Both the position numbers and the translations under genes were made by a program. A DNA stretch of 64,000 nt, from contig OZ253665.1 in the NCBI GenBank assembly GCA_965263295.1, forward strand, positions 896,001-960,000, written 5' to 3'. The notes beneath the pieces were generated by a model, which saw nothing but the letters and a program-made list of their open reading frames with translations, searched no databases and was not told where the DNA came from. Every line of letters begins with the position of its first letter. Within the stretch, counting starts at the first letter, position 1. Below are positions 2,193-37,462 of this stretch, one piece after another. The DNA is from Spirochaetia bacterium (GTDB taxonomy: Bacteria > Spirochaetota > Spirochaetia > SP-2023).

Positions 2193-2304
2193 TCCAGAAC
2201 TTCTGACCTTCGCGCCCCATTTTCTTCTTTCCCCTGGCACCCGCAGCTCCCGTCGTCCTTCGGCCCCTTTTTTAACCTTTTCCTACCCCCCACAGCTCCC
2301 CAGC

Positions 2305-2363
2305 CTAAATTTTGTGCCTTTTCGCCACCTTTCGTGTACTTTCGTGGTTCCCTTTAAGAGTCC
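2305..2363 (+). repeat. TTTCG-box dispersed element, left arm
   Basis: CTAAATTTTGTGCCTTTTCGCCACCTTTCGTGTACTTTCGTGGTTCCCTTTAA is near-identical to 35320-35364 and 37232-37276. Confidence 0.9.
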
Positions 2364-2427
2364 TCACCGCCAAAGATGTATTGCCATACGATATTAATCT
2401 GACTAAGATAGCGTCATTGGAGGACAC

Positions 2428-3057
2428 ATGGATACCCTGGATGAAGTGAGGGAAATCCTCAAAAAGATCGGCATTTCTCAGGCTAAAACCGATGCACAAC
2501 TTGCTAAATCCCAAGCGGAAAACGATAAACAGATGGCGGTTCTACGCGAAGGTCTGGCCGAATTGCGCAGGTCGCAAGAAAAAACCGATGCGCAGATGGC
2601 GAAAACCGATGCGCGGCTGGAAAAAGTGGCCAAAATATTAGGCAATATTGGCATCAGCAACGGTGATTTTGCCGAGGAACTGTTTTTCAACAGTCTCTAC
2701 GCAAATCCGTTTCTCGGTGGGCTGCGCTATGAGAGCGTGGAGCGCAATGTGTCCAACCGCCGTAGGCATCGCGACCAGGGGGAATACGACATCGTGATGT
2801 GCAATGGCGATACCGTGGCCCTGATTGAGGTGAAGTACAAGGCACACAGCAACGACATTGCTAAGCTGCTCAAAAACGAGCCACAAAGTTTTCGTAAGAC
2901 TTTCACCGAATACCGGGACTACAAATTTTACCTGGGGCTAGCGTCCACGGTGACTTACGACAAGCTGATTACAGAGGCACGGGAAGCGGGTATTTTTCTC
3001 TTGACCCAGAGAGGCCAGCACATTGAAGTCGTGAATGAGGAAGTGCACAGCTTCTGA
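2428..3057 (+). CDS. Coiled-coil plus PD-(D/E)XK nuclease-fold protein (DUF3782-like)
   Basis: N-terminal repeats (AKTDAQLAK, EKTDAQMAKTDAR), G.FAEE motif, EYDIV...ALIEVK catalytic signature; GGAGG RBS. Confidence 0.75.
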   Translation: MDTLDEVREILKKIGISQAKTDAQLAKSQAENDKQMAVLREGLAELRRSQEKTDAQMAKTDARLEKVAKILGNIGISNGDFAEELFFNSLYANPFLGGLRYESVERNVSNRRRHRDQGEYDIVMCNGDTVALIEVKYKAHSNDIAKLLKNEPQSFRKTFTEYRDYKFYLGLASTVTYDKLITEAREAGIFLLTQRGQHIEVVNEEVHSF

Positions 3058-3094
3058 TCACGGCCCCCCTAACAGTCCCTGGCCGAGTAATCAT

Positions 3095-3574
3095 CTAATT
3101 ATTTTCCAAAAAATCCTTTAGTTCACTTAAAAACTTAATTAAGCAGTATGTTTCAAACCATGCAATACGTTCAAAATTGAGTGTAAAGGTTGAGAAACCA
3201 TTCTCTTTTAAAGCCCCAATACTTAAAATTAAACTCTTTTTATTTAAAATATTAACGTTCGGAAAAACGCTTGTAAGAATTGTGTTAGAAAAATTGTTTA
3301 TTCCCAATTCCCACTTAATAAATGGTTTCTCAGGTAAATTTTGAAAATGGTCTTTGCGTGCTTGCCGGAATTGTTCTTTGGATAAAATATGTAATTTGTC
3401 TGGAGTGGAAACGTCAATCCCTAAGGGCATATTTTTAGAAAATTCATTCCCTTCACAAAAATCAATAATTTTGTTTGTTAGATTTTTAGTGTCCTTTAAT
3501 TTAATCTCAGTTTCAAAGAACGAAAATATCCTGTTTGAATTAATCGTTTTAAACACCCATTTCCCTATACTCAT
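3095..3574 (-). CDS. Hypothetical protein in very AT-rich segment
   Basis: 159-aa ORF with ATG and AAGGA RBS upstream; composition far more AT-rich than neighbours. Confidence 0.6.
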   Translation of the reverse strand: MSIGKWVFKTINSNRIFSFFETEIKLKDTKNLTNKIIDFCEGNEFSKNMPLGIDVSTPDKLHILSKEQFRQARKDHFQNLPEKPFIKWELGINNFSNTILTSVFPNVNILNKKSLILSIGALKENGFSTFTLNFERIAWFETYCLIKFLSELKDFLENN

Positions 3575-3843
3575 TATTTATATTCCTTTCTCGTTATATA
3601 TGGAGTATTGTTTGATAATTTTTATAATATATTTTTTTTATTTATTTGCAAAGTCTATGAATAATTTTTTAATCTATTTGATGATTATGAATATCATATA
3701 TAGATAATATTTATCTTCTATTACTAAAATTATTAGACTATCATATTGGCCATAAACAACAATATTTTTTATTTTAAAGTTTTATTTATTGTATATATTA
3801 GTTTAAATCTATTTATAAATACTATAAGAAACAAAAAATATCT

Positions 3844-3933
3844 TAAAATGCCGCGTCCACCGCCTGAACGCCATCCGTCATGTCTCCCATGGCCCCTTGT
3901 CTATATTTCGTGGATTTCATAGCTTTTGTGGTT
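3844..3933 (+). repeat. Degenerate right part of the TTTCG-box element
   Basis: 3844-3872 matches 35223-35251 at 22/29 (all differences are transitions); 3901-3933 is a degenerate core (CTATATTTCGTGGATTTCATAGCTTTTGTGGTT). Confidence 0.7.
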
Positions 3934-35043: not shown

Positions 35044-35094
35044 TAGAATAAATCTACAATTCCCGTTGAAAATAATGGTACAGATTCCTGTCTC

Positions 35095-35527
35095 CCGCAG
35101 CCCCCCGTCGTGCCACCCGCGGCTCCGCCGTCTAGATTTCGTGACTTTTCGCTGTCTTCGTGCAATTCGTGGTTCCCTTTAAAAGTCCCTGGCCGAGTAA
35201 CCACGAACAACACCAAAAATTCTAAAACACCGCGCCTGCTGCCTGGACGCCCTTCTTGGCTGCCGTCCCCTTTTTTCCTGCCTCCTTGCCACCCAAAGGA
35301 AAATTTCCGGCCCCCCTGCCTAAATTTCGTGCCCTTTCGCCCTCTTTCGTGCACTTTCGTGGTTCCCCCTTTAAAGTTCCCCTGTCACCCACAGCCCCCC
35401 ATCGTTTCACCCGCGGCTCCCCAGCCTAACTTTCGTGACCTTTCGCTGTCTTCGTGCCCTTTCGTGGTTACTATTTCGTGCCTTTTCGCCACTTTTCGTG
35501 TAATTTCGTGGTTCCTTTCGTGATCCC
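35095..35527 (+). repeat. Cluster of TTTCG-box elements (4 direct cores, 1 partial inverted core)
   Basis: Cores at 35132-35174, 35320-35364, 35426-35469, 35471-35513; inverted AACCACGAA from 35199. Confidence 0.9.
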
Positions 35528-35616: not shown

Positions 35617-36945
35617 TTATGGAGCAGTAGGCTTAAACCCTGTCAAAGTAATTTCTTTATCATTTCCATGATTTTTAATGGTGACTTTTAAAGTTCCCGC
35701 ATCGTCATCAGCATCGCTAAACTCAATGTCACTATCAGGCAAAGCGCTTAAACCATCAATAGCTTTAATGGCTGCTATAATTTCACTATGATCAACATCA
35801 GATGCCTTCTTAGTCGAGTCAACAGTATAACCTGCTATTGAATCTGTGGGCAAATTTTGCACTGCCTCTTTCAAGTCCTTTGTAGCAGTAGATTGATCCT
35901 CAGAAGGTTGATCCTCAGAAGGTTGATCCTCAGAAGGTTGATCCTCAGAAGGTTGATCCTCAGAAGGCTGATCCTCAGAAGGTTGATCCTCAGAAGGCTG
36001 ATCCTCAGAAGGTTGATCCTCAGAAGGTTGATCCTCAGAAGGTTGATCCTCAGAAGGTTGATCCTCAGAAGGCTGATCCTCAGAAGGTTGATCCTCAGAA
36101 GGCTGATCCTCAGAAGGTTGATCCTCAGAAGGTTGATCCTCAGAAGGTTGATCCTCAGAAGGTTGATCCTCAGAAGGTTGATCCTCAGAAGGCTGATCCT
36201 CAGAAGGTTGATCCTCAGAAGGCTGATCCTCAGAAGGTTGATCCTCAGAAGGCTGATCCTCAGAAGGTTGATCCTCAGAAGGTTGATCCTCAGAAGGTTG
36301 ATCCTCAGAAGGTTGATCCTCAGAAGGCTGATCCTCAGAAGGTTGATCCTCAGAAGGCTGATCCTCAGAAGGTTGATCCTCAGAAGGTTGACCCTCAGAA
36401 GGTTGATCCTCAGAAGGTTGATCCTCAGAAGGTTGATCCTCAGAAGGTTGATCCTCAGAAGGCTGATCCTCAGAAGGTTGATCCTCAGAATAATCCATAG
36501 TCAGTATAAAAGTCTTTGGTTTCGCCCAGTCATACCCGGTCAAGGTCCTCATGTCGTGGGCGGAAATTGGGATTCCAATTTTTTGGGGTCGGGGCTTTGA
36601 GACCTCAAAATTATAAACTGACTCTAAAATCTTCTTAAATTGTGTCTTACAAATTTTCTCATCATCAGTTGCTAAAGGATTATCAGCTAACTTTTGAGCT
36701 TCCGTAAAAAATTTGTCTACAATCTTATCTATCTTATCTATGCCAATATCGTGATCGCCAAAATGAATTGTTAAAGACTCTGGCACACTCTCCATGAAAG
36801 TCGACCGGGCAGTCGGCTTAGGATCGTCAAAATCTTCGACCTGGCAAGAGAATATTAGCCCGGCCAGAAGAATTTGTACATATGCATAATATATATGCAG
36901 AAAAGAAAATTTCTTTATAGTATTTCTCATTGTGAAATTCCTCAA
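35617..36945 (-). CDS. Surface lipoprotein with (SEDQP)n tract and C-terminal Lipoprotein_17-like domain
   Basis: LLAGLIFSC lipobox; 40 SEDQ units; C-terminal ADDDAGTLKVTI...ITLTGFK. Confidence 0.85.
   Translation of the reverse strand: MRNFTMRNTIKKFSFLHIYYAYVQILLAGLIFSCQVEDFDDPKPTARSTFMESVPESLTIHFGDHDIGIDKIDKIVDKFFTEAQKLADNPLATDDEKICKTQFKKILESVYNFEVSKPRPQKIGIPISAHDMRTLTGYDWAKPKTFILTMDYSEDQPSEDQPSEDQPSEDQPSEDQPSEDQPSEGQPSEDQPSEDQPSEDQPSEDQPSEDQPSEDQPSEDQPSEDQPSEDQPSEDQPSEDQPSEDQPSEDQPSEDQPSEDQPSEDQPSEDQPSEDQPSEDQPSEDQPSEDQPSEDQPSEDQPSEDQPSEDQPSEDQPSEDQPSEDQPSEDQPSEDQPSEDQPSEDQPSEDQSTATKDLKEAVQNLPTDSIAGYTVDSTKKASDVDHSEIIAAIKAIDGLSALPDSDIEFSDADDDAGTLKVTIKNHGNDKEITLTGFKPTAP
35894..36490. repeat. 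15-bp tandem repeat, about 40 copies
   Basis: TGATCCTCAGAAGG(T/C) repeated; one GACCCTC variant near 36390 (SEGQP). Confidence 0.98.
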
Positions 36946-37197: not shown

Positions 37198-37462
37198 GCA
37201 GCTCCCCATCGTTTCACCCGCGGCCCCCTATCTAAATTTCGTGCCCTTTCGCCACCTTTCGTGCACTTTCGTGGTTCCCCTTTCACAGACCCTGGCCCAG
37301 TAACCACGAAATACACAAAAAAAGAACGAAACAACACGAAAAATTCTAAAACACCGCGCCTGCTACCTGGACGCCTCCCCCAGCTCCCCGCGGCTCCCCT
37401 ATCTAGATTTCGTGACTTTTCGCCGTCTTCGTGCTTTTCGTGGTCCCTCTTTCGTGGTCCCC
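37198..37462 (+). repeat. Cluster of TTTCG-box elements (direct-inverted-direct)
   Basis: Cores at 37232-37276 and 37403-37445, inverted core about 37302-37346; linker shared with 35184-35251. Confidence 0.9.

Follow-up and report, generated by a model that had tools for sequence, protein, structure and literature searches.

Dispersed repeats bracket multi-copy genes in a spirochaete genome and probably descend, as gene-less copies, from a GxxExxY (PDDEXK_3) palindromic element

How do two genes come to lie among the pieces of an intergenic repeat that is found uninterrupted elsewhere on the same chromosome? The question is raised by positions 2305 to 3933 of the window, a 64,000-nucleotide stretch of contig OZ253665.1 from a Spirochaetia bacterium (assembly GCA_965263295.1), where a coiled-coil PD-(D/E)XK nuclease gene (2428-3057) and an orphan open reading frame (ORF) are interspersed with repeat sequence. 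The original prediction read this arrangement as one element split by two gene cassettes, took 35166-35251 as its empty counterpart, and proposed an integron-like platform that captures genes at defined internal points. Here we compare the locus with the whole source genome (G000, one 2.41-Mb contig with a completeness rating of 92.6%, in which the window occupies G000:C1:896001-960000), with three congener genomes (G001, G002 and G003) and with a further genome (G055), and find a genome-wide repeat family that brackets multi-copy genes and whose arms match the flanks of genes for GxxExxY proteins. Judged from sequence, these repeats probably go back to a GxxExxY (PDDEXK_3) palindromic element, of which they would be copies that lack the gene.

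The extent of the family follows from BLAST with four pieces of the window, which returned 80 regions of G000; an iterated mask gave 71 regions (22,497 base pairs, bp), and merging these with small clusters yielded 76 fields amounting to about 22 kb, in which mosaics of units reach 2.5 kb. A single-sequence scan of genome contigs, tried beside these searches, returned one locus. Block order is constant genome-wide, running from a spacer (S) through the left arm (AGTAACCACGAA...CACGAAAAATTCTAAAA), a pyrimidine-rich body and the right arm (TTTCGTG...TTCGTGGTT) to S again, a regularity that bears out the original expectation that the arms do not occur in random order. We delimit the unit as left arm (AACCACGAA), body and right arm (TTCGTGGTT) because short gene-less palindromes in G001, in which left and right arm stand face to face, align with the G000 units at both termini. 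Among 55 fuzzy spacer hits, 44 were retained by a flank rule and 11 discarded as chance; the spacer runs into a left arm in 43 of the 44, the lone exception being the window locus, and the 17-mer at 3074-3090 has 14 exact genome copies. Of 74 fields, whose ends were called with motifs biased toward arms, 47 terminate in a right arm and 18 in a left arm, and the first block is S in 27, D in 13, R in 11, L in 10 and another in 13, such that 37 of the 74 begin at spacer or left arm (39 with a second left-arm block included). The terminal 9 bp of the unit pair with each other, and folding of one unit is no better than that of shuffled sequences (z of -0.73 for the unit and -1.64 for the unit-unit junction); the arms would thus seem to resemble arrays of CACGAA words rather than a long hairpin. 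The right-arm pattern occurs 161 times in G000, 32 times in G001, 10 times in G002 and not at all in G003, with no exact occurrence in G055. A 481-bp field used as BLAST query matched none of 30 relatives, short arm words alone being held in common, and a spacer-arm 23-mer had no match in JGI metagenome contigs.

The link to the GxxExxY family rests on one gene in the source genome and on its homologues elsewhere. The gene at G000:C1:1901341-1901742 is the sole PF13366 match in the genome (E 3.9e-43) and also matches TIGR04256 (E 7.5e-44), exceeding both cut-offs; it is an open 133-residue frame with a GTG start and with GFLEAVY, AD and ELK motifs, and was invisible to the original prediction because it lies 1 Mb from the window. 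It is enclosed in the largest fields (1.90-1.92 Mb), which form the densest arm cluster: 28 of 160 arm-word hits are no farther than 3 kb from it and 72 no farther than 30 kb, and its stop codon abuts an intact left arm. Two GxxExxY genes of G001 (L033 and L036), which has four matches to the family as compared with one in G002 and none in G003, are enclosed by intact arms, AACCACGAA/TTCGTGGTT and AACCGCGAA/TTCGCGGTT. For a wider test we took 32 GxxExxY loci together with 80 metagenome and 19 congener loci of the window nuclease's family, both flanks being present for 29, 50 and 18 of them, and found arm octamers within 150 bp of 7 of the 29 GxxExxY loci but of none of the 68 nuclease-family loci (0/50 metagenome, 0/18 congener). 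The two closest GxxExxY homologues (70% and 60%) carry the same arm type, and many other GxxExxY loci have different tandem words, as judged by eye. As a separate observation, arm words also occur in frame near the N-terminus of methyltransferase-like genes (L160, G001:C1:498500-502000, and L161; ...EDGTTKDTKIDF... and ...EETAKDANGREK...), and GxxExxY genes stand directly upstream of such genes in restriction-modification-like islands.

Many multi-copy genes have same-orientation fields on either side. Of 36 pairs of neighbouring fields no more than 6 kb apart, 33 point the same way, as against 17 of 28 pairs more than 10 kb apart (two unclear pairs were skipped), and with a tandem array collapsed the near pairs still agree in 26 of 29 cases (p=0.015). 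In a rough in-house set of 1,998 ORF calls, a field is no more than 150 bp away from 28 of 87 multi-copy genes, compared with 54 of 1,911 single-copy genes, and 10 of 34 multi-copy families touch a field where 2.8 would be expected. The bracketed cargo includes several predicted lipoprotein families, a coiled-coil gene array and a small gene pair. As assembled, the array (L010, G000:C1:1907142-1912982) holds eight tandem copies of a gene for a 130-159-residue coiled-coil protein with a terminal hydrophobic helix and varying heptad numbers, each copy separated from the next by a different repeat mosaic, and a ninth copy lies at 1929963. A family of large predicted lipoproteins with a common N-terminus (MSSDLIFKRLF...) and internal repeats is found at G000:C1:807280, 863206, 989301, 1649k, 2001326, 2083763, 2086073 and 2198k; almost all copies adjoin a field or lie between fields, an arrangement suggestive of surface variation. 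The predicted lipoprotein at 35617-36945 of the window, for its part, contains about 36 tandem EDQPS repeats.

Duplicated segments, too, can end at fields. Forty-four of 145 have an end within 40 bp of a field, and 6 of 11 recent dispersed duplications have one at a field. Wherever each of two duplicates runs up to a field, their homology breaks off inside it at 37 of 40 pair-ends (tandem array left out). One of 2.56 kb, 99.8% identical between its copies, runs 237 bp into a 246-bp field through a whole unit and ends at the right arm, its other end lying in a neighbouring host gene at a microhomology junction, and a 2.04-kb cassette (98% identical) begins at a left-arm tip and ends in a right arm. 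The repeats thus likely serve as recombination points at which predicted surface-protein genes are copied around the chromosome.

With the unit so defined, the window locus resolves into the features of Table 1. The matches reported in the original prediction are real and well in excess of chance: 35166-35251 reads as quoted, 2341-2363 differs from 35166-35188 at one base, 3074-3090 equals 35184-35200 (17/17), 3844-3872 agrees with 35223-35251 at 22 of 29 positions and is followed by a degenerate core at 3901-3933, and the AT-rich segment with its ORF (3091-3843) has a GC content of 24%. What they were taken to mean has to be revised. The pieces are not those of one element split by cassettes, as the upstream spacer is near consensus and the downstream unit, decayed to about 70% identity, has left-arm remains of its own; with that whole decayed unit at 3815-3933, which is about 70% identical over about 100 bp to a unit at G000:422k, the 'inverted box' downstream of the orphan ORF reads as decayed and not as replaced. 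Nor is 35166 an empty copy, for it consists of a right arm (to 35174), a spacer, a left arm (from 35199) and the body of the next unit; on this reading of the blocks it is the junction of two tandem units, with the left arm as its 'inverted box', and the field that holds it itself brackets a lipoprotein gene. The idea of a platform with gene cassettes survives insofar as the repeats fence cargo genes, with junctions at unit ends and in the inter-unit spacer instead of at internal points. Similarly, AGTCC is indeed present on both sides of the nuclease gene (at 2359 and 3074), but the piece truly duplicated is a decayed spacer of about 20 bp, the kind of trace expected from a crossover within the spacer; a target-site duplication was rejected as the origin of AGTCC, which is part of this longer spacer and marks two of five copies. 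The break after GAGTAA, predicted to recur, is confined to the window locus (1 of 44 spacers).

Table 1. Features of the nuclease locus and of the lipoprotein bracket, in window coordinates
Position	Strand	Feature	Basis
2215..2349	+	Partial repeat unit: pyrimidine-rich body and right arm ending TTCGTGGTT, without left arm	Block map, field ends
2350..2363	+	First part of inter-unit spacer, ending AGTCC; junction common only to the paralogue at G000:133k	
2364..2427	+	Nuclease leader, moving with the gene; sigma70-like site (2381-2409) and GGAGG ribosome site	
2428..3057	+	Coiled-coil PD-(D/E)XK nuclease gene, 209 residues; probable cargo	
3058..3090	+	Decayed right-arm tip and complete spacer S ending GGCCGAGTAA; halts exactly at the usual left-arm start	
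3095..3574	-	Orphan ORF, 159 residues, inside a 24%-GC segment (3091 to about 3814)	
3815..3933	+	Whole unit in a decayed state, with remains of the left arm, body and right arm; identity to intact units about 70%	
35087..35527	+	Tandem repeat field (440 bp) holding the 'empty element'	
35617..36945	-	Predicted lipoprotein with EDQPS repeat tract, flanked by two fields of like orientation; G000 has related genes at other places	
37198..37462	+	The other field of the lipoprotein bracket	

The nuclease itself combines an N-terminal coiled coil of variable length (helix 3-74) with a PD-(D/E)XK domain whose residues E83, D121, E134 and K136 are invariant in all 101 aligned homologues (101 of the 120 matches listed). 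Its structural model (predicted local distance difference test, pLDDT, of 90) has NucS (2vld, E 6.9e-4) as top fold match, NucS/EndoMS and BspD6I being the nearest folds, and the closest named homologue among the matches listed belongs to the spirochaete Candidatus Haliotispira prima (47%), to which the source organism is therefore likely related. No curated family claims the protein in Pfam/NCBIfam-type searches; the 101 homologues match 14 Pfam families at E 0.001, among which the Rpn families PF04754 and PF12784 are absent and DUF3782 and PDDEXK_10 are each weakly matched by two homologues, and some homologues carry a PF26618 label. G000 has four intact copies, one frameshifted and one truncated, all of which touch repeats on at least one side, together with a leader-only remnant behind a right arm at G000:1691107, and in each of the 10 paralogue pairs more differences are synonymous than non-synonymous. 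Upstream of the five full-length copies the junction is AGTCC in two, lies directly after TTCGTGGTTCC in two and follows a body fragment in one, while downstream four copies carry a decayed right-arm tip and spacer; the predicted recurrence at AGTCC therefore extends to two copies of five. The truncated copy at G000:422k runs directly into a left arm, the joint being a microhomology inside the gene, the 6-bp GCCGAG that gene and spacer have in common. Ahead of the window copy, the sigma70-like site of the leader scores 9/12, in a region where six such sites occur and 4.7 are expected by chance.

The predicted tie between nuclease paralogues and the element holds inside G000, where every copy touches repeats, and fails at the 68 loci elsewhere that have no arm octamer within 150 bp. 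Matches to the nuclease family number 3 in G001, 15 in G002 and 11 in G003, the last of which lacks both arms and GxxExxY genes, and in other genomes the family lies between unrelated direct repeats at 8 of 43 loci as compared with 2 of 127 shuffled pairs, the behaviour one would expect of a general repeat hitch-hiker. Having been offered as either cargo or mobilising enzyme, the protein is thus best read as likely cargo and is an unlikely mobiliser, because its family spreads elsewhere without these arms. Several nuclease copies of G002 (L014, L017, L020, L028) are preceded by short tandem GATATTG/GATATGG words, and many have an AT-rich hairpin behind them, so that this gene family is found there among repeats of another kind; around distant homologues (L070, L098, L100, L102, L108, L115) stand direct repeats of 25-44 bp that are peculiar to each locus and in part palindromic.

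The orphan ORF has no Pfam or NCBIfam match, its Atlas neighbours are all unnamed, and as a query it found no match in any of the three congeners. Its one paralogue, at G000:746521-746994 (80% amino acid identity; 27 synonymous and 31 non-synonymous codon differences), likewise adjoins repeats and has the same AGTAA junction, and it is because of this common junction that the joining of orphan gene and spacer appears to have been a single event, later duplicated. The arrangement is not an assembly artefact, since contigs from two sequencing runs of other strains (X3 and X4) bridge the nuclease end, the spacer and the orphan gene, X3 reaching 5200 with one difference. Three further signals were not counted as evidence of cassette circles or of an empty allele. 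One X3 contig links 3084 back to 2320 with undetermined letters between, as a cassette circle might, but any field running from spacer to right arm gives the same picture and the joint cannot be assigned to the window locus; three loose X4 contig ends that run from AGTCC into the spacer at 2363, a candidate empty allele, are likewise not assignable to it; and one X5 contig (depth 2, from a third such run) has a right arm directly before spacer and orphan gene, with the nuclease absent, but differs at 9 positions and shares G3143A with the paralogue (10 differences), such that it may represent the paralogous locus. The congeners are not syntenic here, the neighbour on the locus side of the MTA nucleosidase gene differing in G001, G002 and G003. 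To the left of the locus lies a sulfatase-like membrane gene (186-2192) that extends past the window start and has 1,115 residues in the genome call.

Taken together, the observed unit structure, the arm match to GxxExxY flanks, the bracketing of genes and the duplications that end in fields would fit a reading, which we regard as evenly poised, in which a repeat unit, the nuclease gene, a spacer, the orphan gene and a decayed unit follow one another along the locus and the two genes were copied in by recombination near arm tips, with GxxExxY acting in trans to start copy-type recombination. The trans-acting protein would bind the CACGAA word arrays and nick near their tips; the nick would lead to strand invasion into another field, synthesis, and return at a repeat or at microhomology; and such exchange would spread units, shuffle blocks and carry adjacent genes along. 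At the window locus, the orphan gene would have been joined once to a spacer and later duplicated, and the nuclease gene, bringing its leader and one copy of the spacer, would then have entered the spacer behind the right arm. Both window genes are on this account likely passengers, copied in at or near arm tips. A broader extension, which we put forward tentatively, is that gene shuffling proceeds here without integrase or transposase: a single domesticated GxxExxY nuclease may nick dozens of field tips, and repair may copy genes lying between or beside them, amplifying and diversifying surface lipoproteins, coiled-coil genes and defence-like genes as portable cassettes.

Several observations weigh against a GxxExxY-driven process. 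Long dispersed repeats would attract RecA-dependent and microhomology-based exchange without any dedicated enzyme, and no GxxExxY activity is reported in the literature searched. The arm upstream of the G000 GxxExxY gene is decayed and overlapped by the N-terminus of the gene, and the match between arms and GxxExxY genes is not one-to-one, because G055 has such a gene with variant arms and no exact arm-pattern match and the G002 gene has a different flank. In G002, nuclease copies are found 0.4-1.4 kb away from 3 of the 10 arm words, and about 100 bp behind a fourth copy there is a variant arm, which indicates that the nuclease is not wholly independent of the arms either. As for the duplications, the 40 pair-ends are not independent of one another, and fields occur close to the ends of genes, at which the homology of paralogues would often break off in any case; neither end of 5 of the 11 recent dispersed duplications is at a field; and none of 51 one-field duplicate ends has a clean empty target site, which leaves neither unit insertion nor target duplication demonstrated.

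The explanation closest to this one keeps the same repeat ancestry and leaves the movement of cargo to the host: RecA-dependent ectopic recombination, unequal crossover and microhomology template switching would use the 100-2500-bp fields, GxxExxY having at most seeded the units. We consider this a genuine possibility, though well short of an even chance. The ragged left field ends listed above speak for it, as do the two joints made at microhomology (G000:422k and the end of the 2.56-kb duplication that lies in a host gene), the differing mosaic spacers of the eight-gene tandem array, which unequal crossover would give, and the nuclease family's residence between unrelated direct repeats in other genomes (8/43 against 2/127). 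Several junctions, however, fall within about 10 bp of a left-arm tip or at a right-arm tip, which is sharper than passive homology predicts, and in stress-induced amplification in E. coli repetitive extragenic palindromic (REP) sequences are reported not to be preferred junctions (PMC1428787). That units insert singly beside accessory genes and terminators in a preferred polarity, the genes being duplicated by unrelated means, is improbable: in 46 of 61 cases the gene on the right-arm side is indeed antisense, a hairpin resembling a terminator often lying right against the arm, and insertions are tolerated in accessory regions, but paralogues share the same arm junction sequence, because of which arm and gene appear to have been copied together, the identity of recent duplicates extends into the fields, and empty sites were found at 0 of 51 ends.

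Two alternatives with a dedicated transposition or exchange system fare worse than the copying reading, and both seem to us highly improbable. Complete left-to-right units on both sides of the nuclease at G000:133k and 683k, together with the direct orientation of the brackets, would suit a composite element in which two whole units are the ends of a cut-and-paste or copy-out transposon carrying the gene between them; the flanking units nevertheless vary by locus, the window locus has no outer left arm, the copy at G000:1453k has no downstream unit, one-ended duplications exist, and no empty site was recovered. The integron-like platform of the original prediction, with defined internal exchange points and the coiled-coil protein as mobiliser, is if anything slightly harder still to credit. 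It can draw on the contact with repeats of all five full-length nuclease copies and a fragment in G000, on the invariant catalytic residues and the excess of synonymous differences in every paralogue pair, and on the loose linkage to arm words in G002. It has to contend with the 0/68 family loci with nearby arm octamers, the 11 armless matches of G003, an AGTCC junction at 2 of 5 copies and a GAGTAA break at 1 of 44 spacers. Moreover, neither an integron integrase nor a RAYT was found in the genome, rated 92.6% complete: the two tyrosine recombinases of G000 match XerD and XerC best and score 104 and 83 against a TIGR02249 cut-off of 265, and Y1_Tnp (PF01797) has no match in G000, a control search being positive in 6 of 14 genomes. 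With XerC- and XerD-like recombinases alone, and with no shared fixed crossover point, the integron analogy has to be given up.

Among known systems, integrons hold single accessory genes between direct-oriented repeats, mostly in one polarity, and the accessory genes here are likewise placed; there is, in contrast, no IntI, no single array and no fixed crossover point, different sequences following the right arms, and the nuclease cassette has its own leader. Composites flanked by MITEs, and mobile insertion cassettes, have non-autonomous ends, passenger genes and mobilisation in trans. Compared with these, no DDE transposase tied to the ends was identified in G000, the cargo lies mostly between units and not within one, none of the 51 ends has an empty site, and no target duplication was found, no systematic search for one having been made. 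Enterobacterial bacterial interspersed mosaic elements are likewise non-autonomous intergenic repeat doublets. A close likeness is to the REPIN/RAYT system described by Bertels and Rainey (2011, PMC3116915), with its many non-autonomous intergenic doublets, ordered tandem clusters and a single-copy partner gene beside a large cluster. The partner here, however, is a PD-(D/E)XK protein and not an HUH tyrosine transposase, the arms are CACGAA word arrays in a unit that folds no better than shuffles, and the fields bracket multi-copy genes genome-wide. The widespread GxxExxY/PDDEXK_3 family (TIGR04256, PF13366), of which the G000 partner gene is a member, is described as of 'unknown' function and as multiply transferred in PMC3424549, and its mention in 10.1101/2021.01.26.428298 is incidental; in the literature searched we found no paper tying GxxExxY, PF13366, PDDEXK_3 or TIGR04256 to repeats. 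As opposed to the short palindromes of G001, the G000 units have a long pyrimidine-rich body and form mosaic fields. For the nuclease, a possible role model is Rpn-like defence: Rpn proteins are presented in PMC10400941 as toxin-antitoxin anti-phage genes of the PD-(D/E)XK type that are multi-copy, move horizontally and have a repeat helix of variable length. The window nuclease resembles these Rpn/YhgA-like proteins, and DUF3782/PDDEXK_10-like ones, in being multi-copy, mobile and endowed with a variable-length helix; it differs from Rpn in that this helix is N-terminal and in that its homologues match no Rpn family.

What is new here, and to our mind notable, is the genome-wide bracketing of genes by non-autonomous repeats that have a partner gene. 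G000 displays the consequences of such an element at chromosome scale, with one partner gene, 76 fields and recent duplications that end in them. If the GxxExxY nuclease drives the copying, it would offer a new route to gene amplification and surface variation, and even if copying is passive, a defined enzyme, its arm sequences and natural cassettes make the function of the family directly testable.

Three other loci near fields deserve mention. Two small genes (80 and 86 residues) at G000:C1:457374-458012, between same-orientation fields, appear to resemble a YefM/YoeB-type toxin-antitoxin pair. A 3.5-kb phage-tail-like segment is duplicated at 96% identity (G000:C1:726107-729561 and 1914960-1918414), one copy ending at a field. 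Finally, G000:C1:552971-557083 contains a pair of 1.8-kb stretches that are 71% alike and, when translated, look like CRISPR repeat arrays, with a field starting about 190 bp downstream.

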